A stretch of 38,191 nt of DNA from a bacterium (GCA_963661055.1 CAVLAC010000002.1:1-38191); one strand, 5' to 3'. Counted from the stretch's first letter, positions 1,481 to 23,128 are shown. Program-made: numbers and translations. The notes: generated from the letters alone by a model not told the origin.

Positions 1481-1515
1481 AAGTGTCGCTAATAATCGTT
1501 TAGAAGGAGAAATTG

Positions 1516-4500
1516 ATGAAGAAGGTTGTGTGTTCTGCCGCGATCGCGGCACTTTGTCTTGTGGCGGGGGCCACGGAGGGCATTGTGGAGTGGGATTTCC
1601 CGCGCTTGGGAAATTGCCACGAGGGAATGGCGTTCGCCGATGGCGTAACGGGCGTTCTTGTTTGGGGCGGCGGGGACGAACTGCGCCTCACGCTGGGGCG
1701 CGCCGACCTCTGGGATCATCGCGGGGGGTATCCGTGGACAGCCGACCAGAACTATAAGCACATCGTCAATCTTTGGAAGACTGGCGAAAAAGAGGCTCTC
1801 CTTTCGCTCTTCAAGAAAGAAACTCCCGAGGGTGAGCCCAGAAACCCCTATATGCTCCCACTCGGACGGCTTGTCGTGAAGATGAAGGACGCTCGACTCG
1901 TGCGCGGCGAACTCAATACCCGCACAGGTCTCGGCACGCTCTTCCTTGCCGATGGGCGCACACTCGAGATGGCGACCTCGCCCCAATCACGGACGTTTAG
2001 TATCCGTTTCCCCGAGGGGCTCGACTACGAGGTCTCGTCCATCCCTTCGATGGAGCAACCCATTGCCAACGCGGCACTTTCGAAGCTCGGATTCCGTGCG
2101 GCAGTTAAGCGGGAGGACGGCTTTGATTGGGAATTGCCTGCCGACCCGAGTGTCTCCGTCTCCTACCAAAAGAACGGACGCGATCTCGGGGTGGTCACCT
2201 ATCGCGATGGGAAGTCCGTCGCCCCTGCCACTTTTGACGCGGTAAAGGCGCAGTCCTTTGCTCATTGGCAGTCCTTTTGGGCACGGAGCGCCCGCATTCA
2301 TGTTCCTGAGCCCATTCTTCAGCGCATTTACGATTATGGTATGTACCGCTTTGGGGCGATGACGGACCCCAATGGCGTGCCGGCGGGGCTGCAGGGTCCG
2401 TGGCTCGAGGACGACAAACTCGTCCCTTGGAATGGCGATTATCACTTCAATATCAATGTGCAGGAATGCTATGCGCCCGCGTTCCGTGGCGGACACTTCG
2501 CCAACTTGAAGCCGCTCTTTAAGATGATGCTCGCGTGGCGGCCGCTTTTGCGTGAGAATGCCCGTAAATTCTGCGGTATTGAGGATGGCTATGTTATGCC
2601 GCACTCGGTCGACGATCGCGGCGTTTGCATTGGCGGATTCTGGACGGGCACCATCGACCACGGTTCTGCCGCGTGGATGGCGAGCTATATGTTCCGTTAT
2701 GTGAAATACGCGAAAGACACGGACTTCCTGCGTGAGGCGGCGTATGACTTCATGAAAGGGACGATGAATGTCTATCTCGCAATGCTCGAGGAAGATAAGG
2801 ACGGCAATTTGGCGATTCCGTTCGGTCCGAGCCCTGAGTGGGGGGCAACGGACTTTGAGAAGGCGGTGGGGCGGAATCCGAGCTTTCAGCTTGCGGCGTG
2901 CCATCGCCTCGCGAAAGACCTAATAAGCGCGGCAAAAATGCTGGGTGAGGAACCTGACGCACGGTGGATCGCCATCGAAAAGAAGCTACCCTATTTTGCC
3001 AAAGGCGAGCGCGGTATTGACATCTTCGAGGGAGTAGATTTAAATGAAACCCACCGCCACCACTCGCATATGGCAGGAATCTTCCCCTTTGATATAGTGC
3101 CGCGCTTAAACGGAGAGAATAAAGATGTTCTTGCGGCGACTTACCGCAATTGGGTCGAGCGCGGCACAGGACTTTGGTCGGGCTGGTGCGTGCCTTGGGC
3201 GAGCGTTTTGCATACGGATGCCGGCAATGCCGTCGCCGCCGTCGAAATGCTCCGTGCTTGGGAGCGGTATTACTGTGATGAGGGGCACGGTTCGCACCAC
3301 AATGCCGTTTGGGATGGCTTTACCGCATTTGATAAAGGACGCGGTGTTATGCAAATGGACGGACAATGTGCCGCGACCGCGGCAGTTTTGGAGCTACTCG
3401 TCCACGAGATTGAGGGTGAGCCGCAGTTCTTTAGGGGGTGTCCAGAAGATTGGAAGGAAGTTTCCTTTGAGAATGTCGCGCTTGCCGATGGTCGCCGTGT
3501 GAGTGGGTGCCGCAAGAATGGGGTTGCTTCCATTTGGGAGGCGGGCGGTGTCTTCTCGTCTGAGGAGAGCGAATGGCTCTCGGTCAAGGACGCGCCAGTC
3601 TTCACGGGCGAAGTGAAGGACGGTGCCCGCGCGGCAGATGGAACGAGCTGGTTCTATCGTGCCGTTACCAATGAGGAGAAGCTCGTTTCCGCTAAATGGA
3701 CCGTCTCGGGGCTCGGAGTTTTCGATGTCTTCGTTAATGGCAAGCGGGTTGGGACGGACTTCCTGAAGCCTGGCTTTACGCACGGCAAGAAGACGAGGTT
3801 TGCCTTCTCCTATGATGTAACGGAACTTATGAAGTCCGAAAAGGGCGGTGTGAATGACTTCGCGGCAGAAGTCTCGGCGGGCTGGTGGCGTGATAAAATC
3901 GTCAATTTTGTGGGCAAAAAGAGTGCTTTTCGCGGCGAATTGGTGCTAGAGTATGCGAACGGAACGCGCCAAGTCGTCGGCACTCGCGCGGCAGATTGGG
4001 CGAGTGGCGTTGCGGGCGCGGTGACCCACGCGGCAATCTTTGATGGCGAAGAGTATGATGCGCGGCAGATTAACCCGACGGCTGGGCAAGGGCTGAGCAC
4101 CGCTCAGACCGAGGCTAACCTCGAGTTCGCGGGCGAGATTTTGCCGAGTCCAGGCGCGGAAGTCGTTCTTCGCGAGGATTTGGCGATGAAACCCATTGAA
4201 GCCTATACTTGGCAGGGTGTGGAGGGCGCGAATTCTAATGAATATGGTCGCGTTATTCGCACGCATACCTTTATGCCAGGCGAGAAACTCTCCATTCGGG
4301 CGGGTGAGACACTGGTCGCAGATTTCGGACAGAACTGTGCGGGAGTGCCGCGCTTCACTTTCCGTGGCGAGGAAGGCACGGTTCTTACGGCGCTCCCTGC
4401 TGAAATGCTGAATGACTACAATGGCGCAAAGAGTCGCGGCAATGACGGACCTGAGGGTTCCGTTTACCGCACGAATTTGCGCTCGCCCGAGGAGGGAATG

Positions 4501-5994
4501 CGCGTTGTTTATACTTTCGGGAAGGGCGATGAGGCTGTCACCTATCTGCCGCGCTTTACCTTCTTTGGTTATCGCTATATCTCTATTACGGCGACGAAGA
4601 ATGTGGTTATTGAGTCACTCGAAAGCGTGCCCGTGAGTTCCGTCACGAAGGCGATGGAGTCGGGCAAGATTGAGGTGGGCGACCCCGACCTTAATCGCTT
4701 CCTCCAGAATGTGTATTGGGGACAACTTTCCAATTACCTTTCAGTGCCAACGGACTGCCCTCAGCGCAATGAGCGCCTCGGTTGGAGTGCGGATACTCAG
4801 GTCTTTTGTGAGGCGGGCTCGTTCAATGCGGATACGCGGCGTTTCTTTGCGAAGTTTACGCGCGACCTGCGGGATAATCGCTGTAAGGACGGCGGCTTCT
4901 CGTCCGTCGCCCCGCTCGCACAGTACGGAAACGAGACCTTCGTCTTTGGCTGGGCGGATGTCGGCGTGATAGTTCCGTGGACCATCTGGAAGCACTATGG
5001 CGATACAAGCATTGTGGAGGCGAACTGGGACGCGATGGTCAAGTTTGTGAAGAAACTCGATGAGACGAAGTACAACTTTGAGGGCAAAATTGGCTATATT
5101 TACGCGGATTGGCTCTCGTTTGAGACCTTTGAGAGTTTCGGCAACCGCTTTGGGAGCTGGAAGAAGTGGGGGAAGGACCCCGACGCACGCAATTATCGCC
5201 TCTTCCTTGCCGCGTGCTATTGGCTCTACGACGCACAATTGATGTGCGAGATGGGCGCGGCAATTGGCAAGACCGAGGATGTCGCCTACTTTAAGGAAAG
5301 CGCGGCACGGGCGCGGGAATATATCCGTAGTAAATTTGTGGAAGCGGACGGACTCCTCCTGAAGCCTATGCGCGGACTCCAAGCGGCGTGCGTTTTTGCG
5401 CTCAAGTTTGGCATTGTGGAAGGCGCGGCAAAAGAAGCAACGAAGAAGATTCTGCTCGACTCCATTGCCGCGCATGATGGATGCCTCCAAACAGGCTTCT
5501 TAGGGACGAGCTTCTTTATGGATGTCCTTGCCCAAGAGAATGAATGGGACGCGGCATACGGACTTCTTTTGCAACACAAGAACCCGAGTTGGCTCTATTC
5601 GGTCGACCAAGGCGCGACAACCGTTTGGGAGCGCTGGGATAGCTATACGAAAAAGGATGGCTTTGGCTCTTCGTGCATGAATAGTTTCAATCACTATGCG
5701 TACGGATCTGTCGCCGCGTGGGTCTATCGTAATGTGGCAGGTATCGCGTCCGACCCCAAAACGCCTGGCTTTAAGCGCCTCATCCTCGCCCCGAAACCCG
5801 ATCGGAGATTGGGGTATGTGAAGGCGAGTTATCGCTCGGCGGCAGGTGAGATTAAGAGCGCGTGGCGGTATGAGGGCAATAAGTGGCTTTGGGACTTCAC
5901 CATCCCCGAGGGCGTGACCGCCGAAGTGCATCTCCCAAATGGCACTGCCCCCGAAACCCTCCCCGCCGGCACCTATCACCGCGAACTCCCTTAA
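1516..5994 (+). CDS. Secreted two-domain glycoside hydrolase: N-terminal GH95-like domain fused to a C-terminal GH78 alpha-L-rhamnosidase-like domain
   Basis: Signal peptide MKKVVCSAAIAALCLVAGA. GH95-type motifs: LQGPW..PWNGDYHFNINVQECY and HRHHSHMAGIFP. GH78-type motifs: VPTDCPQRNERLGWSADTQVF and TVWERWDSY. ATG 1516 preferred over TTG 1513 on SD spacing. Confidence 0.8.
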   Translation: MKKVVCSAAIAALCLVAGATEGIVEWDFPRLGNCHEGMAFADGVTGVLVWGGGDELRLTLGRADLWDHRGGYPWTADQNYKHIVNLWKTGEKEALLSLFKKETPEGEPRNPYMLPLGRLVVKMKDARLVRGELNTRTGLGTLFLADGRTLEMATSPQSRTFSIRFPEGLDYEVSSIPSMEQPIANAALSKLGFRAAVKREDGFDWELPADPSVSVSYQKNGRDLGVVTYRDGKSVAPATFDAVKAQSFAHWQSFWARSARIHVPEPILQRIYDYGMYRFGAMTDPNGVPAGLQGPWLEDDKLVPWNGDYHFNINVQECYAPAFRGGHFANLKPLFKMMLAWRPLLRENARKFCGIEDGYVMPHSVDDRGVCIGGFWTGTIDHGSAAWMASYMFRYVKYAKDTDFLREAAYDFMKGTMNVYLAMLEEDKDGNLAIPFGPSPEWGATDFEKAVGRNPSFQLAACHRLAKDLISAAKMLGEEPDARWIAIEKKLPYFAKGERGIDIFEGVDLNETHRHHSHMAGIFPFDIVPRLNGENKDVLAATYRNWVERGTGLWSGWCVPWASVLHTDAGNAVAAVEMLRAWERYYCDEGHGSHHNAVWDGFTAFDKGRGVMQMDGQCAATAAVLELLVHEIEGEPQFFRGCPEDWKEVSFENVALADGRRVSGCRKNGVASIWEAGGVFSSEESEWLSVKDAPVFTGEVKDGARAADGTSWFYRAVTNEEKLVSAKWTVSGLGVFDVFVNGKRVGTDFLKPGFTHGKKTRFAFSYDVTELMKSEKGGVNDFAAEVSAGWWRDKIVNFVGKKSAFRGELVLEYANGTRQVVGTRAADWASGVAGAVTHAAIFDGEEYDARQINPTAGQGLSTAQTEANLEFAGEILPSPGAEVVLREDLAMKPIEAYTWQGVEGANSNEYGRVIRTHTFMPGEKLSIRAGETLVADFGQNCAGVPRFTFRGEEGTVLTALPAEMLNDYNGAKSRGNDGPEGSVYRTNLRSPEEGMRVVYTFGKGDEAVTYLPRFTFFGYRYISITATKNVVIESLESVPVSSVTKAMESGKIEVGDPDLNRFLQNVYWGQLSNYLSVPTDCPQRNERLGWSADTQVFCEAGSFNADTRRFFAKFTRDLRDNRCKDGGFSSVAPLAQYGNETFVFGWADVGVIVPWTIWKHYGDTSIVEANWDAMVKFVKKLDETKYNFEGKIGYIYADWLSFETFESFGNRFGSWKKWGKDPDARNYRLFLAACYWLYDAQLMCEMGAAIGKTEDVAYFKESAARAREYIRSKFVEADGLLLKPMRGLQAACVFALKFGIVEGAAKEATKKILLDSIAAHDGCLQTGFLGTSFFMDVLAQENEWDAAYGLLLQHKNPSWLYSVDQGATTVWERWDSYTKKDGFGSSCMNSFNHYAYGSVAAWVYRNVAGIASDPKTPGFKRLILAPKPDRRLGYVKASYRSAAGEIKSAWRYEGNKWLWDFTIPEGVTAEVHLPNGTAPETLPAGTYHRELP

Positions 5995-7454: not shown

Positions 7455-8056
7455 TGGTACAATTTCCTACCAAAAAAGTCCTCGCATTCGCCGCGTTCGC
7501 GGCGTTTGCGGGGTGCTTTAATGAGCCTACGCCCGAGGAACAGTATGTTCCTGAGGGGGCTCATGTCTATTTGCAGGAAAAGGGGCTCGGCGATCTCTCA
7601 AAGGAAAGCCTGGACGCGGCGAAAATCGTCTATCTCAATCTCGACCGCAATGCCCTCACGAATGTCGCGCCTGTCGCTACGCTCACGAATCTCAAGTGGC
7701 TTCGGCTCAACCATAATCGCCTTGCCGCGCTCCCCGATCTTGCCGCGCTCAAGAGCCTTAGGCGCATCTATCTCGCGAATAATCGCCTGACGGCCGTTCC
7801 CGAAACGCTGAAGGATTTGTCGAGCTTGACGGATATCGAGCTTTCGGGCAACCCGATTACGGAAGTCCCCGCGTGGCTCGCGCAAAAGGAGGGACTCCAG
7901 TTCCTCTCGCTGAACCGCACGAAGATACAGAAGCTCCCCGCCGACCTTTCGGCTTGGCGCACCTTGAAGGCACTCCAACTCGGTAGCCTCAACCTTTCTG
8001 CGGAAGAAATGGCACGCATCCGCGCGGCACTTCCGAAGACGGCAATTGTATTTTAA
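7454..8056 (+). CDS. Leucine-rich-repeat lipoprotein
   Basis: Lipobox-like AFAAFAGC near the N-terminus. About 7 tandem 22-23-aa LxxLxLxxNxL repeats (e.g. LKWLRLNHNRLAALP, LRRIYLANNRLTAVP, LTDIELSGNPITEVP). TAATG overlap with the tpiA stop. Confidence 0.75.
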   Translation: MVQFPTKKVLAFAAFAAFAGCFNEPTPEEQYVPEGAHVYLQEKGLGDLSKESLDAAKIVYLNLDRNALTNVAPVATLTNLKWLRLNHNRLAALPDLAALKSLRRIYLANNRLTAVPETLKDLSSLTDIELSGNPITEVPAWLAQKEGLQFLSLNRTKIQKLPADLSAWRTLKALQLGSLNLSAEEMARIRAALPKTAIVF

Positions 8057-14823: not shown

Positions 14824-14880
14824 ATGGCGAAAATTTCGTCACGAAAATTTCGCCATGACAAACTTTTTTCACTTTTTTGC
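14824..14880 (+). terminator. Putative intrinsic terminator: 15-bp-arm hairpin ATGGCGAAAATTTCG-TCA-CGAAAATTTCGCCAT (one mismatch) followed by two T6 runs.
   Basis: Read directly from the sequence. Located 12 nt after the glycosyltransferase stop. Confidence 0.6.
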
Positions 14881-14910
14881 ATTTTCCCCCTTGCGGGGGA
14901 AGTCAAAATA

Positions 14911-14919
14911 TGGTATACT
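14911..14919 (+). promoter_or_regulatory. Extended -10 element TGGTATACT for the secreted-protein operon.
   Basis: TGnTATACT located 36 nt upstream of ATG 14955. GAGGAG SD at 14941-14946. Confidence 0.5.
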
Positions 14920-14954
14920 ATTATCATCTTCAACGGATAAGAGGAGAATTAAAG

Positions 14955-16079
14955 ATGGCTAGACTACTTGACAAATGCTGGATAAGCGCGTGCGCCGCAC
15001 TCGCGTTTTCGGTTGTATCCGCAGCCGCCGTTCAGGACGACTTTGAGAGCACCGACACTGGTTCTACGCCCACAGGCTGGACGGGCAACGGGACGGTTGC
15101 AGCTGAAGAGTATACTTACACCAAGGCGGTCGGGCTTCCTCTTACGGATGAAGGGCAGGCACACACCAAGACCCTCGCTGTCTCGGGGCAGGCAGTTCGC
15201 ACCTATGGTGAGGATACAGCGACTGGCGAGTCGGTCACCGTGGATATGATGGTTAAGATTATGGCGGCGGATGATGTCCCAGATGCTCCTGACACAACCT
15301 CTGATATTCAGGTGGCCATCGCGACAGGTCCTGTGGCGGACGATGCGACGGTTGCTCCTATCTATATCTATAAGGGCACAACGACGGATGACGGAACCAC
15401 CTATGATTGGGAAGATACGGGCAAGTCGTATGAGACCAACTCCTGGGTGCGTCTTATGATGGTGATGGACTATGATAACAACGCGTGCAAGGTCACGATT
15501 GACGGCGATCTCATCGGTACGGTTAACTTCCCTGGCACATCGCTCACAGCGTCGAAGAAGGTTTCTTCCATTACTGTTGAAGGTTTGACCTCGCTTGACG
15601 ATGTTGTTGTAACAGGCAATGAAAAGAGTGCCTCCGCGCTCGACCCATTCCCAGAGAAGGCGACGAGTGAAACGGCAACAGTCGGCACTGACTCGGTTCC
15701 TGTCAAGCTCAACTGGCTCTATAAGAACGGCATTGACGGTGATGTGTCGAAAGTGATGGAGACCAAGTGCTCTGATGAGTCGGGTATGACCTATGCTCAG
15801 AAGTATGAGGCGGGTCTCGATATCGACGACAAGCAGAAGTTCGAAGTCTCCTCGATGTCGATTACGGAAGCGAAATCGGCGGTCTTCACAGTGCCTGGCA
15901 AAGCAGATTCCTACTCGGTTGTGATTGATTCGGACGGCACCACCACCACGGTGATCCCGACGACCAGCACTGAAAACGGTGTGACCACGGCGACGGTTGA
16001 TCTTTCTCAGGTCACTGGCAAGGTCATCAAGTTCCAGCTCAAGGCTAAGGCTGTAGACCCTAATGCAAGTTCTAACTAA
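14955..16079 (+). CDS. Secreted hypothetical protein A (374 aa), possibly with an N-terminal LamG/jelly-roll-like region
   Basis: Signal peptide MARLLDKCWISACAALAFSVVSAAAV. DDFES..GSTPTGWTG motif. Thr/Asp/Ser/Val-rich. Start trimmed from 14877 to the ATG with an SD. Confidence 0.7.
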   Translation: MARLLDKCWISACAALAFSVVSAAAVQDDFESTDTGSTPTGWTGNGTVAAEEYTYTKAVGLPLTDEGQAHTKTLAVSGQAVRTYGEDTATGESVTVDMMVKIMAADDVPDAPDTTSDIQVAIATGPVADDATVAPIYIYKGTTTDDGTTYDWEDTGKSYETNSWVRLMMVMDYDNNACKVTIDGDLIGTVNFPGTSLTASKKVSSITVEGLTSLDDVVVTGNEKSASALDPFPEKATSETATVGTDSVPVKLNWLYKNGIDGDVSKVMETKCSDESGMTYAQKYEAGLDIDDKQKFEVSSMSITEAKSAVFTVPGKADSYSVVIDSDGTTTTVIPTTSTENGVTTATVDLSQVTGKVIKFQLKAKAVDPNASSN

Positions 16080-16102
16080 TTTAAAGGAAAGGACGCTAGA
16101 AA

Positions 16103-16840
16103 ATGAATAAACTTTCAGTTATGATTGCGGCTTCCGCCCTCGCGTTCGGTGCGTGGGCGACCCCGAGCTTCGTGCAATTCTCGTCCGTCGGACCTGACAC
16201 CTACGCGGACGGCACAGAGGTCGTTGACGGCGAAATCTATGCGCTCGTTTCCGTCTCCAGCGATGGCAAGTTTGAGGGTATCAACTCGGACGGCACAACC
16301 GTCGACCCCAATGATAAGATTCTTTACGCCGCGCCGCTCGCGCTGAACGGACACTGCAAGAATGTGGTCTTCACCCTCAAAGATGGACAGCCCACCTCGA
16401 ATCTCGCGGTTTATTTGCTCGACACCCGCATCAAGGCGGATGACGGCACTTCTACGGTGGCAGGCGTTGATGAGAATGGTAAGTTGAAGCTCGTCAACAG
16501 CTATGCGGCAGTTGAGGACGCTATTTCGGGTGGCTCGGTCGCGAAGTCGACAAGCAAGGAGGTTCAGACAACGGCTCTTGCAACCGTCGCACTGGGTGAT
16601 GTCCCCACTCCTACGATTAAGGGCATCAAGGTCGTTGGCGCGAAGGTGGAAATCACTGTCGCGAATACCGTCCCTGAAGTTCGGTACACGGTTAAGGGCG
16701 GTGAAACACCGTCTAAGATCGACAAGAGAGACCTCGTTTCGGGCATCAATGGCGTGGCAAATGGCGAAATCACCCTCGTGGTGGATAGCGAAGCCGCTAA
16801 GGATTGCCGCTTCTTCAAGGTAACGCGCGCAACTAAGTAA
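16103..16840 (+). CDS. Secreted hypothetical protein B (245 aa)
   Basis: Signal peptide MNKLSVMIAASALAFGAWA. Beta-rich composition, no recognisable motif. SD AAAGGAAAGGA upstream. Confidence 0.7.
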   Translation: MNKLSVMIAASALAFGAWATPSFVQFSSVGPDTYADGTEVVDGEIYALVSVSSDGKFEGINSDGTTVDPNDKILYAAPLALNGHCKNVVFTLKDGQPTSNLAVYLLDTRIKADDGTSTVAGVDENGKLKLVNSYAAVEDAISGGSVAKSTSKEVQTTALATVALGDVPTPTIKGIKVVGAKVEITVANTVPEVRYTVKGGETPSKIDKRDLVSGINGVANGEITLVVDSEAAKDCRFFKVTRATK

Positions 16841-16853
16841 GGAGGATATGACG

Positions 16854-17636
16854 ATGAATATGAAAAGTATACTATTTGCCGCGACAGCGGCGCTCGCAGT
16901 CAGCCTCCAAGCCGAGGTGACAGCGAATAATACGCTCTGCCGTATCGAGGTCGAGAGCTCGGCGAAGAGCGTCATCGTAGCCGTCCCCCTCGTCGCAGTC
17001 GGTAGCGGGGATGTCAAGGTTACAGACTATATTATGACCACCAACCTCAAGGACGGCGACTCGATTCTTATGTGGGATACGAAGAACACGAAGTGGGTGG
17101 GCTGGGTCATCAGTAGTGGTGCTTGGGTGGCTCTAACTGATGTTTCTACGACTGGTGGCGTCAGCGCAGGGCAACCTGCAACCGATTCCGCTCTTGAGCG
17201 TGGTACGGCAGTTTGGCTCAACCGCTCTAGTGCAACGATTGAAGAGAACGATAGCTTCTATCTCTACGGGCAGGTCGCCTCGAGCACGGCTGATGGCGTT
17301 ACCTTGACGGCTCAGGCTGGTGGCTATACCCTCCTCGGCAACCCCACCACAGCGAGCCTCGACCTTAGCACGCTGAGCTGGAACGATTGCAATGAAGGTG
17401 ATACTATCTATCTGAGTAGCGACACGCAGGGTGGTATTAGCTACTATGAATATCGAGTTCCTACTGACGGCGCTGAGGCGAAATGGTGCTCAAAGGCAGT
17501 TACAAAGAATGATAAGGGCTTCTCGAAGACGACCTTTACGGCGATTTCTTCGGGAACGGTTACCCTTGCACCTGGCGAAGGATTTTGGTATAATAGTACA
17601 AGTTCTAGTAGTAGCCCGAGCGTGACTATCAAGTAA
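16854..17636 (+). CDS. Secreted hypothetical protein C (260 aa)
   Basis: Signal peptide MNMKSILFAATAALAVSLQA. ATG 16854 has the best spacing to AAGGAGG (16839-16845); ATG 16848 is also possible. Confidence 0.7.
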   Translation: MNMKSILFAATAALAVSLQAEVTANNTLCRIEVESSAKSVIVAVPLVAVGSGDVKVTDYIMTTNLKDGDSILMWDTKNTKWVGWVISSGAWVALTDVSTTGGVSAGQPATDSALERGTAVWLNRSSATIEENDSFYLYGQVASSTADGVTLTAQAGGYTLLGNPTTASLDLSTLSWNDCNEGDTIYLSSDTQGGISYYEYRVPTDGAEAKWCSKAVTKNDKGFSKTTFTAISSGTVTLAPGEGFWYNSTSSSSSPSVTIK

Positions 17637-17656
17637 ATTTGAGAGGAGAGTAAGAA

Positions 17657-18208
17657 ATGAAAAATAAAATTATAGCGGCTTTGCTGACAGCGACCTTCGC
17701 GTCCGTTGTCTCGGCACAGGTTCTTTATTGGCAGGTAAAGCCAGATGTCACGATTAGTGGTACTAGCACCACTGAGGGTAACAAGTGGAACTATGCTTCG
17801 TTTTGGGCAGTGAATAGTGATAATACGGCTTCATTGGTCACTAGTTACACATTTAATACAGACAAAACAGTAACAGATGTGAGTTATGTTGATACGACCT
17901 ACCTTTCTGGCAACACTCCCGCATATGTTAACTACACATCAACTGACTATACGGGCTACTCGTTCTACATTGAGTTGACCAATTCCTCTGGTGATACTGA
18001 TGTGGGTGTTGCTCGGTCGAATACTTTTGACTCGAGTAGTTTTGGTAATGCTCTTCAAGACGCGGCAAACTTCAATGCCAACTGGACGAGCATCAATGCT
18101 ATTGGCTCTGGTTTGACCTTTACGGCGATTCCTGAGCCGACGAGTGGGCTTATGCTTCTTGTGGGCGCGGCAATCTTGGGTCTGCGTCGCAAGCGCCAAC
18201 AGATTTAA
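17657..18208 (+). CDS. PEP-CTERM sorting-domain protein D (183 aa)
   Basis: Signal peptide MKNKIIAALLTATFASVVSA. C-terminus IPEPTSGLMLLVGAAILGLRRKRQQI has the PEP motif, a TM helix and a basic tail. Confidence 0.85.
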   Translation: MKNKIIAALLTATFASVVSAQVLYWQVKPDVTISGTSTTEGNKWNYASFWAVNSDNTASLVTSYTFNTDKTVTDVSYVDTTYLSGNTPAYVNYTSTDYTGYSFYIELTNSSGDTDVGVARSNTFDSSSFGNALQDAANFNANWTSINAIGSGLTFTAIPEPTSGLMLLVGAAILGLRRKRQQI

Positions 18209-18239
18209 ATCATTAACTTTCCTTTCTGTTATGATTGGA

Positions 18240-18263
18240 GGGGGGCGCAAGCCCCCCTTTTTT
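18240..18263 (+). terminator. Intrinsic terminator: GGGGGGC-GCAA-GCCCCCC hairpin (GNRA loop) followed by TTTTTT.
   Basis: Read directly from the sequence. Located 32 nt after the stop of the PEP-CTERM gene. Confidence 0.85.
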
Positions 18264-18275
18264 GGTTGTGGGCGG

Positions 18276-18356
18276 CTAGAGGGGCTAGAAGTTCTAGATT
18301 AGCTAGAAGTTCTAGTTGTTCTAGAATGGCTAGATTATCTAGCTCGGCTAGAATAG
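18276..18356. repeat. Nine tandem 9-bp units, each starting with CTAG (CTAGAGGGG, CTAGAAGTT, CTAGATTAG, CTAGAAGTT, CTAGTTGTT, CTAGAATGG, CTAGATTAT, CTAGCTCGG, CTAGAATAG).
   Basis: CTAG begins at 18276, 18285, 18294, 18303, 18312, 18321, 18330, 18339 and 18348, which is an exact 9-bp phase. Confidence 0.9.
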
Positions 18357-18389
18357 CGGCTTAGCCCGCTTTTAAGCCCTTGGGGCTCT

Positions 18390-18524
18390 TTGTTAAAACC
18401 CTTGCCCCGTTTGTTAAAACCCCACCCTGCTCTTGTTAAAACCCTTGCCCCCGTTTTTACAAGAGCAGGGCGGGGTTCTAAAGAGAGCAGGGCTGGGTTT
18501 TAAAGAGAGCAGGGCGGGGTTTTG
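18390..18524. repeat. Convergent block of 22-bp-phased repeats. Three forward TTGTTAAAACCC units start at 18390, 18411 and 18433. Three AGAGCAGGGC(G/T)GGGTT units, which are the reverse complement of the longer form of the same unit, start at 18462, 18484 and 18506.
   Basis: AACCCCACCCTGCTCTTG (18418-18435) is the inverted complement of CAAGAGCAGGGCGGGGTT (18460-18477) with one mismatch. Confidence 0.8.
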
Positions 18525-18602
18525 AAAAGGGGCGGCTTGCCTCTTAATTTTGGCTAATTTGGCCCCATTTTTAAAATAATTGCCCCCTTATGTCCTCTAA
18601 TT

Positions 18603-18611
18603 TGGTATAAT
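18603..18611 (+). promoter_or_regulatory. Extended -10 element TGGTATAAT, 7 nt upstream of ATG 18619 (leaderless arrangement).
   Basis: Exact 9-mer. Confidence 0.45.
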
Positions 18612-18618
18612 AGAGGCT

Positions 18619-18735
18619 ATGAAAAACGATAAAGTTTCGGTTCTGAGGCAGCAAACAAATTGGCAGGAACTCTATTTCTACCAAAAGACCGTTACGCTAT
18701 ATCAGCTAACAGTCGTCTTTTGTCGGCTCTTCTAA
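18619..18735 (+). pseudogene. 38-codon N-terminal fragment resembling a four-helix-bundle protein (the family carrying a Y..L.SYQ....YD.TV.FC.RF N-terminal motif)
   Basis: Translation is MKNDKVSVLRQQTNWQELYFYQKTVTLYQLTVVFCRLF*. It is below the ORF-track cutoff and stops where full-length members continue for more than 100 aa. Confidence 0.45.
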
Positions 18736-18758
18736 CCCTTGAGAAAGTAGGCTGTTTT

Positions 18759-18767
18759 TGCTATAAT
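18759..18767 (+). promoter_or_regulatory. Extended -10 element TGCTATAAT for the rdgB-fusion operon.
   Basis: TGnTATAAT located 43 nt upstream of ATG 18810. AAGGTGG SD at 18797-18803. Confidence 0.5.
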
Positions 18768-18809: not shown

Positions 18810-20141
18810 ATGCCTGAGATGAGAAAGCCGAAGCTTTATGTGGCAACACATAATAAGCATAAAATCCGTGAAATCGGCGAGATAATGTCCGATTACGAGA
18901 TTGTCGCTGATAACCCTGAGGGTGCCGAGGAGACAGCGGCGACTTTTGAGGGGAATGCGCTCATCAAGGTGCGTGCGATTGCGGTACGGCACTTGGGTTC
19001 GTGGTGTCTCGCCGATGATTCGGGACTTTGCGTTGACGCGCTCGACGGAGCACCAGGCGTCCATAGTGCACGCTATGCGGGTGAGCCCTGTGATACAGCG
19101 GCGAATAATGCGCTCTTGATGAAAAACCTCTCGGGTATCACCAACCGCCACGCGGCATTTGTCTCGGCGGTCGCTCTCATTGACCCTGCTGGCAAAGAGC
19201 ATGTCGTCGTCGGCAAGTGCCACGGACTCATCGCCGAAACGCCCTCTGGCAATGGAGGCTTCGGGTACGACCCCTTATTCATTCCCGAGGGCTATGAAAA
19301 GACTTATGCCGACCTCACAGAAGACGAGAAGAACGCGATCTCTCACCGTGGACGCGCCTTGCAAGCGGCGCGGGAAGTCCTTAACGCGGCGAAAGTTCCG
19401 CGCTCACGCGGCACTTTTCTCGCGTGGCTTCGGTTCTTTCGCGTTGTGAATTTGCCAACATTGCCAGGTGATGTGCTCGTCGGCGCGGCACTTGCGATTG
19501 CCGCGTGCAAAAATATGATTGGGCATTACTCGCCCGCGCCACTCGTAGCGTCCATTCTTGCTTCGTGCTGTCTCTATCTCTATGGACTTGCCGATAACGA
19601 TATTGTTGGCGCGGCGACAGACATAGATCGTCCGATTCCACGCGGCGAAATCTCCCTTGGCGCGGCACGCTTTGCGCGGGGGCTTTGCTGGCTCGGGGTC
19701 TTAATTTGTGCGCTCGTGGGAGGGCTTCCGCTCGCGTGGTGGCTCATTGCTTGTGTGCTTCTCGCTGCCATCATCGCCTATAATCGTCTGAAGATTGCTG
19801 TTTTGATGGGACTTTGTCGCGGACTCAATGTGCTTCTCGGCGCGGCAGTTTTTGGGATTGCCCCTTTAAAGGCTGTCCCTGTTCTTGGCGCGGCACTTCT
19901 TTGGACGCTCTTCATTACTGCGGTCACCAAGTACTCAGAAGGTGAGCACGCCGACCCCGCGAAGCAACGCCGCGTCGGGGTCTTGATTGGCTCGCTCATC
20001 TATCTGCAACTCGCCGTGCTCGTGGGGGCGACGCTAATTTGTCCTGTGCGTCCACTTCAGGCATTCCTTATTACTGGGGCAATCCTGCTCCTCGTCCTTC
20101 GGTTTATGAAGCGGGCATTCCCCCGCGTGGAGGCCTCATGA
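18810..20141 (+). CDS. Fusion protein: N-terminal RdgB/HAM1 non-canonical purine NTP pyrophosphatase (about aa 1-195) joined to a C-terminal UbiA-like prenyltransferase membrane domain (about aa 200-443)
   Basis: N-terminal motifs: ATHNKHKIREI, ADDSGLCVDALDGAPGVHSARYAG, GFGYDPLF, ISHRGRA. The C-terminal half has about 7-8 hydrophobic helices and an Asp-rich motif LADNDIVGAATDIDRPIPRGEIS. The frame is uninterrupted across the junction. Confidence 0.7.
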   Translation: MPEMRKPKLYVATHNKHKIREIGEIMSDYEIVADNPEGAEETAATFEGNALIKVRAIAVRHLGSWCLADDSGLCVDALDGAPGVHSARYAGEPCDTAANNALLMKNLSGITNRHAAFVSAVALIDPAGKEHVVVGKCHGLIAETPSGNGGFGYDPLFIPEGYEKTYADLTEDEKNAISHRGRALQAAREVLNAAKVPRSRGTFLAWLRFFRVVNLPTLPGDVLVGAALAIAACKNMIGHYSPAPLVASILASCCLYLYGLADNDIVGAATDIDRPIPRGEISLGAARFARGLCWLGVLICALVGGLPLAWWLIACVLLAAIIAYNRLKIAVLMGLCRGLNVLLGAAVFGIAPLKAVPVLGAALLWTLFITAVTKYSEGEHADPAKQRRVGVLIGSLIYLQLAVLVGATLICPVRPLQAFLITGAILLLVLRFMKRAFPRVEAS

Positions 20142-20163
20142 AGAAATTAATAGTTATTATTAC

Positions 20164-20190
20164 GGGGCGCAAGGGACTGCGCCCCCTACC
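20164..20190 (-). repeat. GGTAGG-hairpin family member. The + strand reads GGGGCGCA-AGGGAC-TGCGCCCC-CTACC.
   Basis: 8-bp perfect stem with the conserved AGGGAC loop and CTACC flank. Lies inside an operon, ending 3 nt before the GAGGAG SD of the next gene. Confidence 0.8.
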
Positions 20191-20203
20191 GTGAGGAGAA
20201 TTT

Positions 20204-21349
20204 ATGAGAAAGTTAACAGTCATTGCTGCGGGGCTCGGGTGGGATGTGCTTACCCGCAATAAGACGGAAAAGATTGCGGATCTCACCTTCACGCCCAAAG
20301 AAAGCGTCTTCCCTGCTGTCACTTGCGTGGCGCAAGCAACTTTGCGGACAGGGCTCACGCCCGCCGAACACGGCATGATTAGCAACGGAAAGTGGATGGA
20401 CGACCTTCGCAAGCCGCTCTTTTGGGAACAGAGTGCCCGCCTTGTGAAAGGGCACCGCGTCTGGGAGCGCGAAGACGGGGGAAGTCCCGTCGGGCTCTTC
20501 TTCCTTCAGCAGTCGCTCGGCGAATCGGCGAGTGTCATTGTCTCGCCCGCGCCCATTCATAAGCACGGCGGCGGGATGATTATGAGTTGTTATACGCGTC
20601 CAACTGAGATGGCGAAAGTCATAAGCCGCGTCGCAGGGAAGTTCCCGCTCCATCGTTATTGGGGCCCGCTCGCCTCCGCGAAAGTGGGACGCAACTGTAT
20701 TGCTTGGTTTGAGACGATGACAAGCGTGCAGGATGTGGAGGAAGCGTATCTCTATTTGCCGACTCTCGACTATGCCGCCCAGAAATACGGACCTGGCAGT
20801 GCGCAAGACCGCGCGGCGTTTCGTGAATTCACGCGGCAGATTGAGACGCTCTCGCGCCTTTGTATGCAGCGCGGATGCTCGATGTGCGTCATTGGTGACT
20901 ACAATATTACGCCTGTGACGGAAGCGGCGGTGCGTCCGAATGTCGTCCTTCGCCGTGCGGGACTCTTCAAGACACGCACCATAAAAGGAATGGCGTATCC
21001 CGACTTTTATCAGTCGTCCGCTTTCGCGATGTGCGACCACGAGTTCTGTGTATTAGAAGGCGAGAAGGCGGCGGAAGCTGAGAAAGTGCTCCTCGCGACA
21101 GGTGACTACACCTTGCCCGGCGCGGAAGCCGTGCCCAATAAGCGCATTCTACTCGCGAAACAAGGTTCGTGGTGCGAGTACAAGTGGTGGACCGATGACC
21201 GTGAGGCTCCCGACTTTGCCGCGCATGTCGATATTCACAACAAGCCCGGATACGATCCGCGCGAACTCTTCCTCTTCTGTAAAGGCGAGGTCAAGGGTAC
21301 ACACGGACGCAAGTGTGAGGTGGCTTATTCTGAAGGAGATGGACTATGA
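20204..21349 (+). CDS. Alkaline-phosphatase-superfamily protein (nucleotide pyrophosphatase/phosphodiesterase type)
   Basis: N-terminal pattern LTVIAAGLGWDVL..FPAVTCVAQATLRTGLTPAEHGMISNG is typical of this family (the nucleophile Thr lies in the TC context). Also a later GDYNITP. Confidence 0.6.
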   Translation: MRKLTVIAAGLGWDVLTRNKTEKIADLTFTPKESVFPAVTCVAQATLRTGLTPAEHGMISNGKWMDDLRKPLFWEQSARLVKGHRVWEREDGGSPVGLFFLQQSLGESASVIVSPAPIHKHGGGMIMSCYTRPTEMAKVISRVAGKFPLHRYWGPLASAKVGRNCIAWFETMTSVQDVEEAYLYLPTLDYAAQKYGPGSAQDRAAFREFTRQIETLSRLCMQRGCSMCVIGDYNITPVTEAAVRPNVVLRRAGLFKTRTIKGMAYPDFYQSSAFAMCDHEFCVLEGEKAAEAEKVLLATGDYTLPGAEAVPNKRILLAKQGSWCEYKWWTDDREAPDFAAHVDIHNKPGYDPRELFLFCKGEVKGTHGRKCEVAYSEGDGL

Positions 21350-22098
21350 AGATGAACTTCTGTGTGCCCGTTGGAGCATTCTTCGTTGGAATTGCGCTTG
21401 GTTTTGGGCTTGCGCCACGGGAAAGTGCACCGCAAGAAGCGACTTCCGAGCCGACAACTGCCGCGCCGAAGAAGAAGGACATCCTTCCTAAGCGCGAAGT
21501 GCCGCGCTCCGAGGAGGGTGTCCCTCAGGAGAAAGAAGAGAAAGCCCCTATCTTAGTTCGTGAGGAAGTGAAGGACTCGAAGAAGCAGCCCCATAGTCCA
21601 CACGACTATTTTGCCCGTATGAAGAAAGAGCGTCCGCAGGACTATATCAAGATGACGAACAATATGGCGAGGGCGAGAGCGGAGCGCCGCGCTAAGTTAG
21701 ATGATAATCTCAAGTTCTTATCGTCCATTGATGTTTCGAAGTTTAGCGAGGAAGCGACGGCGAATCATGAACGCCTTCAGGAGCTACTCGCGCGGCAGAC
21801 GGAACTCGCGGAGATAATGGACCCCTTACTGCATGAAAATGTGACCGAGGAAGATCGGCGCAAGAACTTCGATGAGATGATGACGGTCACTAGGGAAATC
21901 AACGAACTCAACGCGGCAGAACGCGATACACTCTTTCGGACGGTCGCCGAGGAGATGGGGTGCGCCGAGGAGGATGCGGATACTTTTGTGGAAACACTCA
22001 CGGACATCATAGATGCGACGGGAGGCAACTTCGGTGGGTTCGGTCCGCGTCGGAATTCGCCGCCGCCGCGTCCGCCCGCAGGAGGAGAACAGAAATGA
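21346..22098 (+). CDS. Membrane-anchored hypothetical protein with a charged helical ectodomain or cytoplasmic domain
   Basis: N-terminal TM segment FCVPVGAFFVGIALGFGLA, followed by a Lys/Glu/Arg-rich sequence and a Pro-rich tail. ATGA overlaps at both ends. Confidence 0.6.
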   Translation: MKMNFCVPVGAFFVGIALGFGLAPRESAPQEATSEPTTAAPKKKDILPKREVPRSEEGVPQEKEEKAPILVREEVKDSKKQPHSPHDYFARMKKERPQDYIKMTNNMARARAERRAKLDDNLKFLSSIDVSKFSEEATANHERLQELLARQTELAEIMDPLLHENVTEEDRRKNFDEMMTVTREINELNAAERDTLFRTVAEEMGCAEEDADTFVETLTDIIDATGGNFGGFGPRRNSPPPRPPAGGEQK

Positions 22099-23090
22099 AA
22101 GAGAAGAAGAAAGTTAATTCCATTCAGGATGTCGTCGATTTGGCGAGTGCCTTCTATGGGAGTGCGGTGCTATTTGCCGCGCTCGATGTGAATCTCTTTG
22201 AGCAAGTGGAGAAGGGGACGCTTGACACCTCCTCACGGGGCATGCGCCTTTTGGCGGATGCTTGTGTGGCGCTCGGACTTCTCGCGAAGAAGGGCGATAA
22301 GTACTCCAATACGCCACCCGCGCAAGCGACACTCATTCCAGGTGCGCCCGCCGACCTCACGAAAGCTATCCGTTATAATCGTGATGTGTATTGTGCGTGG
22401 GGCAAGCTTGCGGAGTTTGCTCAGACGGGGCGTCCCGTGGAAAAGCCCGCCATTCATCTTGGCGAGGACGCGACACGTACGAAGGCGTTCGCCGCCGCGA
22501 TGTTTGGACGTGCGATGGGCATTGGGCGCGGCGTTGTGCCGCTTCTCGATCTGCCGCGCAAGGAGGGTGCGCGGGTACTCGATTTGGCAGGAGGGCCTGG
22601 CGCGTATGCGATATTGATGTGTCAGCGTTGCGAGGGGCTGAGGGTCACGACCGTGGACTTGCCCGCCATTAGTGCGGAAGCCGAAGGCTATGTGACGCGG
22701 GCGGGACTCGCCGACCGTATCACTTGTCAGGCGGGTGATTACCATACGGACGACTTTGGCGAGGGACTCTATGATGCGGTCACGATCTTCGGTGCACTCC
22801 ATCAGGAGTCGTCGGTAGAGATTGTGGCGATTCTGAAGAAGGCCTATCGGGCTTTGAAGGCGGGAGGGCAAATTTTCGTCCTCGATATGATGACGGACTC
22901 CACTCACACAGCCCCCGCCTTCTCGGCGCTCTTCGCCGTCAATATGGCTCTCACTACTGAAAATGGCTGGGTTTTCGCGGATTCGGAGCTGAAAGGATGG
23001 CTCAAGGAAGCGGGTTTTGAGCCCGGTCCCACAGTCGCTGTGCCGCCCCCGATGCCTCATTGGCTCGTCGTCGCAGAAAAGAAATCTTGA
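22095..23090 (+). CDS. Class I SAM-dependent O-methyltransferase (family 2-like, with an N-terminal dimerisation-type region)
   Basis: SAM motif I VLDLAGGPGAYA. Downstream acidic and GGxxxVxD motifs (AGGQIFVLDMM). Start set to ATG 22095 (ATGA overlap, GGAGGA SD) rather than 21960. Confidence 0.7.
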   Translation: MKEKKKVNSIQDVVDLASAFYGSAVLFAALDVNLFEQVEKGTLDTSSRGMRLLADACVALGLLAKKGDKYSNTPPAQATLIPGAPADLTKAIRYNRDVYCAWGKLAEFAQTGRPVEKPAIHLGEDATRTKAFAAAMFGRAMGIGRGVVPLLDLPRKEGARVLDLAGGPGAYAILMCQRCEGLRVTTVDLPAISAEAEGYVTRAGLADRITCQAGDYHTDDFGEGLYDAVTIFGALHQESSVEIVAILKKAYRALKAGGQIFVLDMMTDSTHTAPAFSALFAVNMALTTENGWVFADSELKGWLKEAGFEPGPTVAVPPPMPHWLVVAEKKS

Positions 23091-23099
23091 ATTTCATAC

Positions 23100-23128
23100 T
23101 TGACGAAATCGCAAGAATAGTGTAAAAT
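23100..23128 (+). promoter_or_regulatory. Sigma70-like promoter: TTGACG (-35), 17-nt spacer, TGTAAAAT (extended -10), upstream of mreB.
   Basis: Read directly from the sequence; canonical spacing. Confidence 0.6.

Follow-up and report, generated by a model that had tools for sequence, protein, structure and literature searches.

Why should a house-cleaning nucleotide pyrophosphatase be built into the same polypeptide as a membrane prenyltransferase-like domain, and does it take part in the chemistry of that domain? The question is raised by a gene group at positions 18,810 to 23,090 of a 38,191-nucleotide stretch of bacterial DNA (GCA_963661055.1, CAVLAC010000002.1:1-38191), which as a whole we call the window. 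The first gene of the group joins an RdgB/HAM1-type pyrophosphatase to a UbiA-superfamily domain; genes for an alkaline phosphatase (AP)-superfamily protein, a protein with a single transmembrane (TM) segment and a methyltransferase follow. The fusion is genuine and occurs across a lineage of gut and rumen Kiritimatiellae; we lean towards reading it as housekeeping RdgB tethered to an EboC-related enzyme, with an EboC/EboF-type pair as the core of the operon. The architecture, homologies, distribution and conservation described below are observed directly in these loci.

A reading of the window made from the sequence alone (the sequence-only reading) had described one uninterrupted 443-codon open reading frame (ORF) carrying both RdgB and a UbiA-type domain, and matches to PF01725, TIGR00042, the EboC profile and Foldseek structures bear this out. 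The RdgB half is that of an ordinary enzyme. PF01725 (Ham1p_like) matches residues 9-189 with E 6.5e-63 and 212.4 bits, against a gathering score of 22.5, the RdgB/HAM1 equivalog TIGR00042 scores 177.3 bits and passes its cut-off of 145.35, and the top Foldseek matches for the N-terminal half are RdgB/ITPA structures (E about 1e-12). Identity is 49% to the dITP/XTP pyrophosphatase of M. abscessus (6WWD) and ~38% to E. coli RdgB (1K7K), and the motifs TxNxxK, E, K, DDSG, FGYDP and SHRG align with both. Across 42 fused proteins, T13/N15/K18, E40-41, K53, DDSG 69-72, FGYDP 151-155 and HR 179-180 are invariant. Judging from these residues, the RdgB half presumably keeps ordinary ITP/XTP hydrolysis. 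No second rdgB or folK was found in the window or the related loci, which is what that search covered.

The membrane half is a more distant relative of known families. PF01040 (UbiA) matches residues ~205-443 with E 1.7e-07 and 31.2 bits, just under its gathering score of 34.2, and the same family is precomputed on record for many relatives. The best profiles are NCBIfam EboC (NF035940; E 6.6e-22, 78.2 bits against a cut-off of 250) and the SCO3242 prenyltransferase (NF045897; E 6e-18, 65.4 bits against a cut-off of 260); neither cut-off is passed, and the NCBIfam equivalog match is confined to profile positions 1-207 of 292. The fold is nevertheless that of UbiA. An AlphaFold2 model built on an alignment of 42 fused homologues (mean predicted local distance difference test score, pLDDT, 86.8; predicted template modelling score, pTM, 0.58) lays out a mixed alpha/beta N-terminal domain, a linker, a short amphipathic helix and then eight long helices, and Foldseek matches the C-terminal half to DGGGPS, UBIAD1, AfUbiA and ApUbiA (probability 1.0, E 2e-4 to 5e-2). 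Because of the positive-inside rule and the even number of helices, the N-terminus, the C-terminus and all conserved loops are predicted to be cytoplasmic, on the same side as the RdgB domain.

To which branch does this half belong? Searches with it return mostly stand-alone proteins of 228-278 aa at 49-59% identity, and a few longer ones with PF01725. In a profile search for the clade that covered 1.84 billion representatives, the core family comprises about 20 clusters above 235 bits, which are either stand-alone (211-264 aa) or carry extra sequence (449-475 aa). A sister clade of about 300-340 aa has two additional helices, placed after motif 2 and before the C-terminal helices, and EboC/SCO3242-like proteins lie beyond it. 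By sequence comparison the window's UbiA half is therefore placed outside the EboC equivalog, as a shortened, divergent offshoot of the EboC branch within the UbiA superfamily.

The sequence-only reading had based its UbiA assignment on seven or eight helices and an Asp-rich motif. The superfamily stands, through the EboC profile and Foldseek, and so do the helices, which number eight; the motif proves to be non-canonical. The string NDIVGAATDIDRPIPRGEIS is present in the fusion protein, and the motifs of this half read NLPTxPGD, DNDxxGxxxDxxRPIPxG, YNRxK, MGLCRG and YSEGE. In a 24-sequence alignment of the UbiA domain, drawn from stand-alone and fused proteins, the invariant residues cluster in the loops that hold the active site of UbiA enzymes: N-L-P-T-x-P-G-D, G-L-x-D-N-D-x-x-G-x-x-x-D-x-x-R-P-I, Y-N-R-x-K, M-G-x-C-R-G and T-x-Y-S-E-G-E. 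In place of the first Asp-rich motif of UbiA enzymes, NDxxDxxxD, the window has DNDIVGAATD, with an invariant Gly instead of the central Asp and one additional Asp ahead of the Asn; the DGGGPS segment NDIFDIEID...RPLPSG aligns with NDIVGAxTD..RPIPxG of the window family. Before the last helices, KYSEGEH stands instead of the second motif, DxxxD, and only its Glu (E379 in the fusion) is common to EboC. Bona fide EboC proteins (B. cereus, Haloferax) have the canonical NDxxDxxxD and a loop after it that is four residues longer, and their second motif is likewise reduced, with Thr and Glu alone conserved.

Could the membrane half then be a pseudoenzyme, a non-catalytic anchor that tethers RdgB? 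The lost central Asp, a length about two helices short of the ~300-aa relatives and the Pfam score under the gathering threshold would all fit. However, about 50 invariant positions cluster in the cytoplasmic active-site loops (DND, RP, YNR, MGxCR, E379), and in 43 of 80 species the protein occurs without RdgB, usually translationally coupled to an EboF-like gene, so that we regard a mere anchor as very unlikely.

We next asked how widespread the fusion is. A survey that took one genome per species yielded 80 loci, nearly all from rumen, gut or faecal metagenome-assembled genomes labelled Kiritimatiellae, Verrucomicrobia or Lentisphaerae, with a few bins evidently misnamed. RdgB and UbiA share one ORF in 33 of these loci, a separate rdgB lies directly upstream in 4, and rdgB is not nearby in 43. 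With the full-length protein as query the matches amount to at least 120 clusters, each formed at 90% identity; their members have 433-467 aa, are 54-98% identical to the query over 91-100% of its length and come from NCBI, ENA, JGI and Logan assemblies. All have the Ham1 domain and about half have PF01040 on record, and any name given to members is limited to [quoted passage not shown] (PGAP). The sequence-only reading knew of no description of such an architecture; our literature search likewise found no paper that mentions an RdgB-UbiA fusion.

Some of the bins bear odd titles. Those named Lachnospira hominis, Azospirillum sp. 51_20, Anaerovoracaceae, Barnesiella, Faecalibacterium, Alistipes and Methanomethylophilaceae (L004, L005, L024, L027, L048, L058 and L063) carry a Kiritimatiellae-type locus, probably through wrong binning of the contigs or wrong labels on the bins.

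An assembly or sequencing artefact, that is a frameshift or a chimera of two genes, would be the simplest way to dismiss the fusion, and four relatives do have separate genes. Yet the same frame recurs in dozens of independent assemblies (NCBI, ENA, JGI, Logan) at 54-98% identity. It is continuous in L004, L005 and L006, in ENA and JGI contigs and in P0121 (98% amino-acid identity), and the closest relative, L004, has an identical frame layout at 89% nucleotide identity over 8.4 kb. The junction itself offers no usable internal start for the UbiA half. As the sequence-only reading had noted, it lacks both a stop codon and an alternative start preceded by a Shine-Dalgarno sequence: past the RdgB part, the reading frame meets its first start codon at residue 213 (19446), a GTG that belongs to the conserved RVVNLPT helix and has no Shine-Dalgarno-like or purine-rich stretch ahead of it. 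The UbiA domain can therefore be produced only within the fusion. Given this recurrence across relatives and independent assemblies, an artefact is excluded for practical purposes; we put its probability close to negligible. Other apparent fusions were discarded. An 846-aa ORF in L021 that seemed to join RdgB, UbiA and AP is spurious, as its frame crosses a masked run of 63 N (7621-7817) in the UbiA gene, and in the ~1000-aa ORFs ending in a UbiA domain (L058 and L063) the tblastn match spans a stop codon.

Does the pyrophosphatase perform a step of the pathway? The sequence-only reading proposed that it had been recruited for a pyrophosphate-releasing step. The data argue otherwise: the motifs and the score are those of the housekeeping enzyme, RdgB is unlinked in the 43 species already mentioned, and the distance between SHRG and VNLPT ranges from 23 to 44 residues among 122 fused proteins. 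In the AlphaFold2 model the linker is poorly modelled (pLDDT <50 at residues 197-199) and confident packing between the two domains is not predicted. Moreover, an AP gene is lacking within 7 kb of 14 fused genes; in L023, for example, rpoN follows on the other strand.

The lineage also fuses neighbouring genes freely. FolK relatives, one of them named Kiritimatiellia, are joined to about 13 unrelated sets of partners, among them response regulators, cation-efflux proteins, HD domains and thiamine pyrophosphokinase. The ~300-aa UbiA-like sister clade is the partner in three or four cases (P0272, P0374, P0400, P0404; L084/L085 7001-8422). We considered whether these last might mark a pterin or nucleotide-diphosphate link, an idea weakened by the same FolK being joined to so many unrelated partners; no AP or O-methyltransferase (OMT) gene occurs at the FolK-UbiA-like loci. 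Similarly, RpiB (LacAB_rpiB) and SHMT form a 572-aa fusion in L084 (8491-10209), and the window itself encodes, at 1513-5994, a 1493-aa protein that combines a GH95 catalytic domain with a complete GH78 alpha-L-rhamnosidase. In the sister-clade fusions FolK (HPPK) is at the N-terminus, and their surroundings are housekeeping genes (lipid A acyltransferase, IMPDH).

Because RdgB is so often unlinked, the linker so variable and the lineage so prone to fusing neighbours, we consider it fairly probable that the ITPase is a tethered housekeeping passenger with no role as a pathway step. As for the fusion, its simplest explanation is an incidental one: it probably arose from neighbouring genes that overlapped. 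Among the four loci with separate genes, three show an overlap of the pair, ATGCTGA in L018 and L026 and GTGGCTGA in L009, one frame change away from a fusion; in L016 a separate rdgB and the UbiA-like gene are about 700 nt apart. Most likely, an overlapping and translationally coupled rdgB/ubiA-like pair would have lost its stop through a frame change, and the product would have been kept since both halves are needed. The persistence of the fusion is weak evidence for more, as linkage is kept trivially once genes are fused.

Several observations weigh against a passenger role and in favour of functional coupling, in which the ITPase domain would act in the pathway, for example by delivering inosine or xanthosine monophosphate (IMP or XMP; the 6-oxopurine is a hydroxylated N-heteroaromatic ring) or by processing a nucleotide-like intermediate beside the active site of the prenyltransferase, before the EboF-like enzyme of the nucleotide-pyrophosphatase family and the methyltransferase take their turn. 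Of the 80 species, 37 have the two genes fused or adjacent, and this persists with AP and OMT genes elsewhere; both domains are cytoplasmic by predicted topology, and RdgB and the EboF-like protein, the two soluble partners, both belong to nucleotide pyrophosphatase families. The fusion or adjacency also spans deep divergence (UbiA domains outside the window's subclade are 41-57% identical) and appears in several clades of a poorly resolved neighbour-joining tree, so the link may have arisen repeatedly or been selected for. Finally, characterised EboC accepts hydroxylated N-heteroaromatics. Set against the ordinary RdgB motifs, the unlinked species, the variable linker and the fusion-prone lineage, coupling nonetheless appears unlikely. 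A specific form of it, in which the ITPase generates IMP or XMP, or holds it where the EboC-like domain opens to the cytoplasm, so that a 6-oxopurine is prenylated, then trimmed by the EboF-like enzyme and methylated, is more doubtful still; if true, gut Kiritimatiellae would make a new prenylated, methylated purine-derived lipid or signal.

The AP-superfamily product of the next gene is the best conserved of the set (72% mean column identity in Kiritimatiellae against 57% for the UbiA domain), matches PF01663 with E 1.1e-21, and is encoded 62 nt past the fusion stop. A tblastn search of plasmids with this protein returned 60 records with 31-35% identity, in most of which the alignment spans 85% or more of the query, and all four matches that we inspected lie inside ebo-type clusters. 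In B. cereus p1 the match adjoins an annotated eboC, the same pairing as in the window; a second lies in an ebo-type cluster of Haloferax volcanii pHV3; on a Streptomyces plasmid the AP gene shares its cluster with an SCO3242 prenyltransferase, EboA, TatD and EboE, and on Azospirillum pAB510b by EboA, TatD, a DHQS-like protein, EboE and UbiA. Identity to the AP genes of these clusters is 32-35% at 85-97% coverage (E 1e-43 to 1e-52).

Thr40, Asp189, Gln193, Tyr233 and His367 are invariant in the alignment of the AP protein, and D278-H279, D343 and H345 are likewise conserved. Gln193 and Tyr233 occupy the positions of metal-binding His residues in NPP/PhnA, a replacement common to B. cereus and Haloferax EboF, which also share Thr40. 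The N-terminal metal-binding Asp on strand 1 is absent, with VIAAGLG in Kiritimatiellae against VLDIISL/VLDIVGL in EboF. By sequence, then, the AP protein is an EboF homologue whose metal site is further altered. EboF itself is without an assigned function (PMC5133447; preprint 10.64898/2026.05.21.724671).

The sequence-only reading had mentioned ebo-type clusters as a setting for UbiA and AP-family pairs, and this lead has held up at both genes: EboC is the best-scoring profile for the UbiA half, and homology of the AP protein to the EboF genes of four ebo-type clusters extends over its full length. How much of the ebo system is present? The window and 38 of 70 related loci have an EboC-type prenyltransferase gene next to an EboF-type AP gene. 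The core genes that co-occur in ebo operons (eboB and eboE, usually with eboA and eboD/ino1) do not accompany it in the searched loci. EboA, EboB/TatD, EboD, EboE and Ino1 queries from three ebo clusters gave zero tblastn matches at E<=1e-4 in the window and 86 loci (1.0 Mb), a search in which EboF queries matched 47 loci and the B. cereus EboC query 70. With the other ebo genes locally absent, “ebo-type cluster” can apply here only to a two-gene remnant or core. The ebo operon has recently been tied to thallusin and saccharoquinoline, and EboC farnesylates hydroxyquinaldic acids in vitro with farnesyl diphosphate (FPP) as donor (preprint 10.64898/2026.05.21.724671).

The remaining genes vary from locus to locus. 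Seventy loci extend 1.5 kb or more past the UbiA gene. In the 38 mentioned above the AP gene comes next, often overlapping, in 4 it is a few kb away, and in 28 it is absent within 7 kb; in several loci UbiA and AP form a two-gene unit with the next genes on the opposite strand. Where at least 5 kb was available downstream, a methyltransferase is near in 15 of 54 loci, or 15 of the 31 that carry the AP gene. The window's methyltransferase passes the gathering scores of PF00891 (E 5.9e-20, 71.9 bits against 22.3) and PF08100 (E 8.2e-09, 35.6 bits against 25.6), and its nearest solved relatives are the DsyB/MTHB S-methyltransferase (E 2.7e-30) and RedM. The 250-aa protein has a single hydrophobic segment at the N-terminus, followed by a charged middle and a tail rich in Pro. 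It matches no Pfam or NCBIfam family and does not resemble the equivalently placed gene of L001; identity is 50-78% within the window's subclade and 29-36% outside it, and the gene is absent or replaced in many loci. The three genes that the sequence-only reading placed after the fusion, with ATGA overlaps or a short spacer, were thus all recovered as an AP-family, a single-TM and a family-2 methyltransferase gene, but its expectation of four genes travelling as a fixed unit failed. Because the UbiA-AP pair alone is widely conserved across loci, the conserved functional unit is the EboC-like and EboF-like pair, and the methyltransferase and other genes are optional additions.

We also weighed an alternative to aromatic prenylation, an envelope lipid-carrier pathway. 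The UbiA-like domain would act like a decaprenyl-phosphate phosphoribosyltransferase, with a polyprenyl phosphate receiving a phospho-sugar; dephosphorylation would fall to the EboF-like enzyme (analogous to Rv3807c) and methylation of the sugar to the methyltransferase. The class-wide distribution of the gene set, its housekeeping neighbourhoods and the altered Asp motif make this reading, akin to decaprenyl-phosphate phosphoribosyltransferase (DPPR synthase), a serious rival. The neighbours of the set are housekeeping and envelope genes (in the window mreBCD-PBP2-rodA and lpxK; elsewhere pheT, rpoN or a lipid A acyltransferase), a non-canonical first motif could suit a different donor, a sister-clade member weakly matches the DPPR-synthase model, and Yurchenko et al. 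raised a prenyl-phosphate role for EboC and EboF (PMC5133447). Against it, the best profiles are EboC and SCO3242 and not DPPR synthase, EboC uses FPP with aromatic acceptors, and the envelope context is not conserved, since the flanks vary by locus (mreBCD-PBP2-rodA in the window, L004 and L006; pheT in L001; rpoN in L023). On this evidence a lipid-carrier pathway seems improbable.

We favour an EboC/EboF-type pair at the head of the operon, and infer the catalytic roles and the nature of the product as follows. The fusion would head the operon, whose core is the prenyltransferase and the EboF-type enzyme, and to which the window's subclade adds the poorly conserved membrane-anchored protein and the family-2 methyltransferase, dependent on S-adenosylmethionine (SAM). 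Prenyl diphosphate would be bound through D262/N263/D264/D271, with E379 in the second site, and by analogy with the in vitro activity of EboC an isoprenyl chain might be transferred to a hydroxylated aromatic or cyclitol-derived acceptor. The cytoplasmic EboF-like enzyme, with Thr40 as the putative nucleophile, may act on a phosphate ester or anhydride of the substrate or product, removing or rearranging it, and the product would be methylated by the methyltransferase. Several points count against this scheme. The Gly at the centre of motif 1 and the loop after it, four residues shorter than in EboC, leave prenyl-diphosphate chemistry uncertain; EboF has an N-terminal metal-binding Asp that is missing from the AP protein; the closest solved relative of the methyltransferase is an S-methyltransferase; and, as no other ebo gene is nearby, the acceptor cannot be deduced from the ebo pathway.

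The features of the operon and its boundaries are collected in Table 1. The gene upstream (17657-18208) is closed by the terminator-like hairpin, which marks the upstream boundary of the unit. The promoter-like site ahead of the fusion, putative as a consensus match only, lies within 75 nt that are 98.7% identical to L004. No terminator-like site was found between 20141 and mreB (23157), and the second promoter-like site is probably the downstream boundary of the operon.

Table 1. Positions of the features discussed, counted from the first nucleotide of the window.
Feature	Position	Strand	Remarks
Intrinsic-terminator-like hairpin and T run	18237..18266	+	10-pair stem, 7 GC pairs, T tail
Putative sigma-70-like promoter, TTGAGA-17-TATAAT with TG extension	18739..18767	+	11/12 matches; 43 nt before the ATG
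RdgB-UbiA-like fusion protein	18810..20141	+	Single uninterrupted ORF, ATG start, 443 codons/aa
RdgB/HAM1 (d)ITP/XTP pyrophosphatase domain	18810..19391	+	aa 1-194; C-terminal motif ISHRGRA
Junction and linker	19362..19421	+	About aa 185-204; no stop codon, no usable internal start
Shortened EboC-related UbiA-superfamily domain	19392..20141	+	8 predicted TM helices
EboF-type alkaline-phosphatase-superfamily (Phosphodiest, PF01663) protein	20204..21349	+	381 aa, no signal peptide
250-aa protein, no family match	21346..22098	+	ATGA overlap with the AP gene
Family-2 SAM-dependent methyltransferase with N-terminal dimerisation domain	22095..23090	+	331 aa, ATGA overlap
Promoter-like site before mreB (23157)	23100..23128	+	

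Further observations concern the surroundings of the operon. The intergenic stretch at 18262-18735 is rich in repeats: about 10 units of a CTAGnnnnn tandem with a 9-bp period at 18267-18351, then at 18369-18540 three or four direct repeats of 21-22 bp (TTGTTAAAACCC...) followed by three copies in inverted orientation, and a 38-codon ORF at 18619-18735. Most of it is missing from L004, which has 116 nt where the window has about 470, so it looks like an insertion (iteron-like, or like a miniature inverted-repeat transposable element); no Rfam family matches it above threshold. A known RNA or riboswitch in the 600-nt leader was rejected as well, as the Rfam/riboswitch scan gave only sub-threshold miRNA-like hairpin matches caused by the inverted repeats. 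Further upstream (14877-18208) are four consecutive genes with apparently secreted products (signal-peptide-like N-termini) and no Pfam match, the last of which has a PEP-CTERM-like tail (IPEPTSGLMLLVGAAILGLRRKRQQI).

Additional genes occur in related loci. In L033 (7796-11293) LemA, an M48-family peptidase and a CBM9-like protein stand between the fusion and the AP-hypothetical-OMT genes, and L017 and L035 have a gap of similar size at the UbiA-AP position, so that the same insertion is probably present in three of the 4 loci with the AP gene a few kb away. A Cys-rich protein of 336 aa, absent from the window, is encoded just past the EboF-like gene in 18 loci (for example L001 7866-8873, L041 7850-8842, L042 9715-10701 and L043 9984-10982). 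It is cytoplasmic, 55-78% identical among loci and has invariant Cys75/185/189/220 and a C-terminal C-x5-C-x2-C-x2-C motif; no relatives were found in Pfam, NCBIfam or the PDB. An identity as a U32-type (UbiU/UbiV-like) anaerobic hydroxylase finds no support, with an hhalign probability below 1% against E. coli UbiU/UbiV. It is probably an Fe-S protein of the same pathway.

These findings bear on annotation and on the ebo system. As database names cover only the RdgB half, a membrane prenyltransferase half is invisible in common rumen and human-gut bacteria. An EboC-EboF pair can exist without the remaining ebo operon, in strict anaerobes, and this two-gene minimal system is a simpler setting in which to find what EboF does with or for a prenyltransferase. 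The locus also advises caution in “Rosetta-stone” inference: since small housekeeping genes here fuse to whatever lies downstream, a conserved fusion alone is no proof of shared function.

How does the locus compare with known systems? RdgB/HAM1/ITPA house-cleaning enzymes share the full-length domain, a score above the cut-off and all motifs with the window protein, but those known are soluble stand-alone dimers whereas the window's domain is tethered to an 8-TM protein. With the solved UbiA enzymes (DGGGPS 6M31/7BPU, UBIAD1, AfUbiA and ApUbiA) the membrane half has the fold in common, at 14-18% identity, and differs in the Gly for the central Asp, in YSEGE for motif 2 and in being one helix short of the canonical nine. 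The system for arabinan precursors, a decaprenyl-phosphate phosphoribosyltransferase with a phosphatase, resembles the window in its UbiA-family enzyme followed by a phosphate-removing enzyme and in its housekeeping or envelope setting. Its phosphatase is of the PAP2 superfamily, unlike the AP family of the window, and the window protein has no significant profile match to the DPPR-synthase model.

The closest parallel is the eboABCDEF operon, including its inositol-type form with SCO3242 prenyltransferases, in which EboC-like and EboF-like genes are likewise adjacent and often overlapping. The membrane half shares with EboC the N-terminal R-x-x-N-x-x-T-x-x-D helix, the RP after motif 1, MGxCRG and the T...E of the second motif, and differs in DNDxxGxxxD as motif 1 and in the shorter loop that follows; compared with the EboC-like relatives of ~300 aa it lacks about 50-68 residues (two helices), leaving 8 helices against about 10. 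The AP protein is a full-length homologue of EboF with the same Gln/Tyr replacements of the AP-superfamily His ligands. In contrast to the ebo operon, the window's unit adds a methyltransferase and other loci a Cys-rich 336-aa protein, the window carries the RdgB fusion, the hosts are strict gut anaerobes, and EboA, EboB, EboD, EboE and Ino1 were not found in the 1.0 Mb of flanks. What is new is not a kind of system but a minimal, shortened and motif-altered EboC/EboF-like module, often fused to RdgB, in anaerobic gut Kiritimatiellae.

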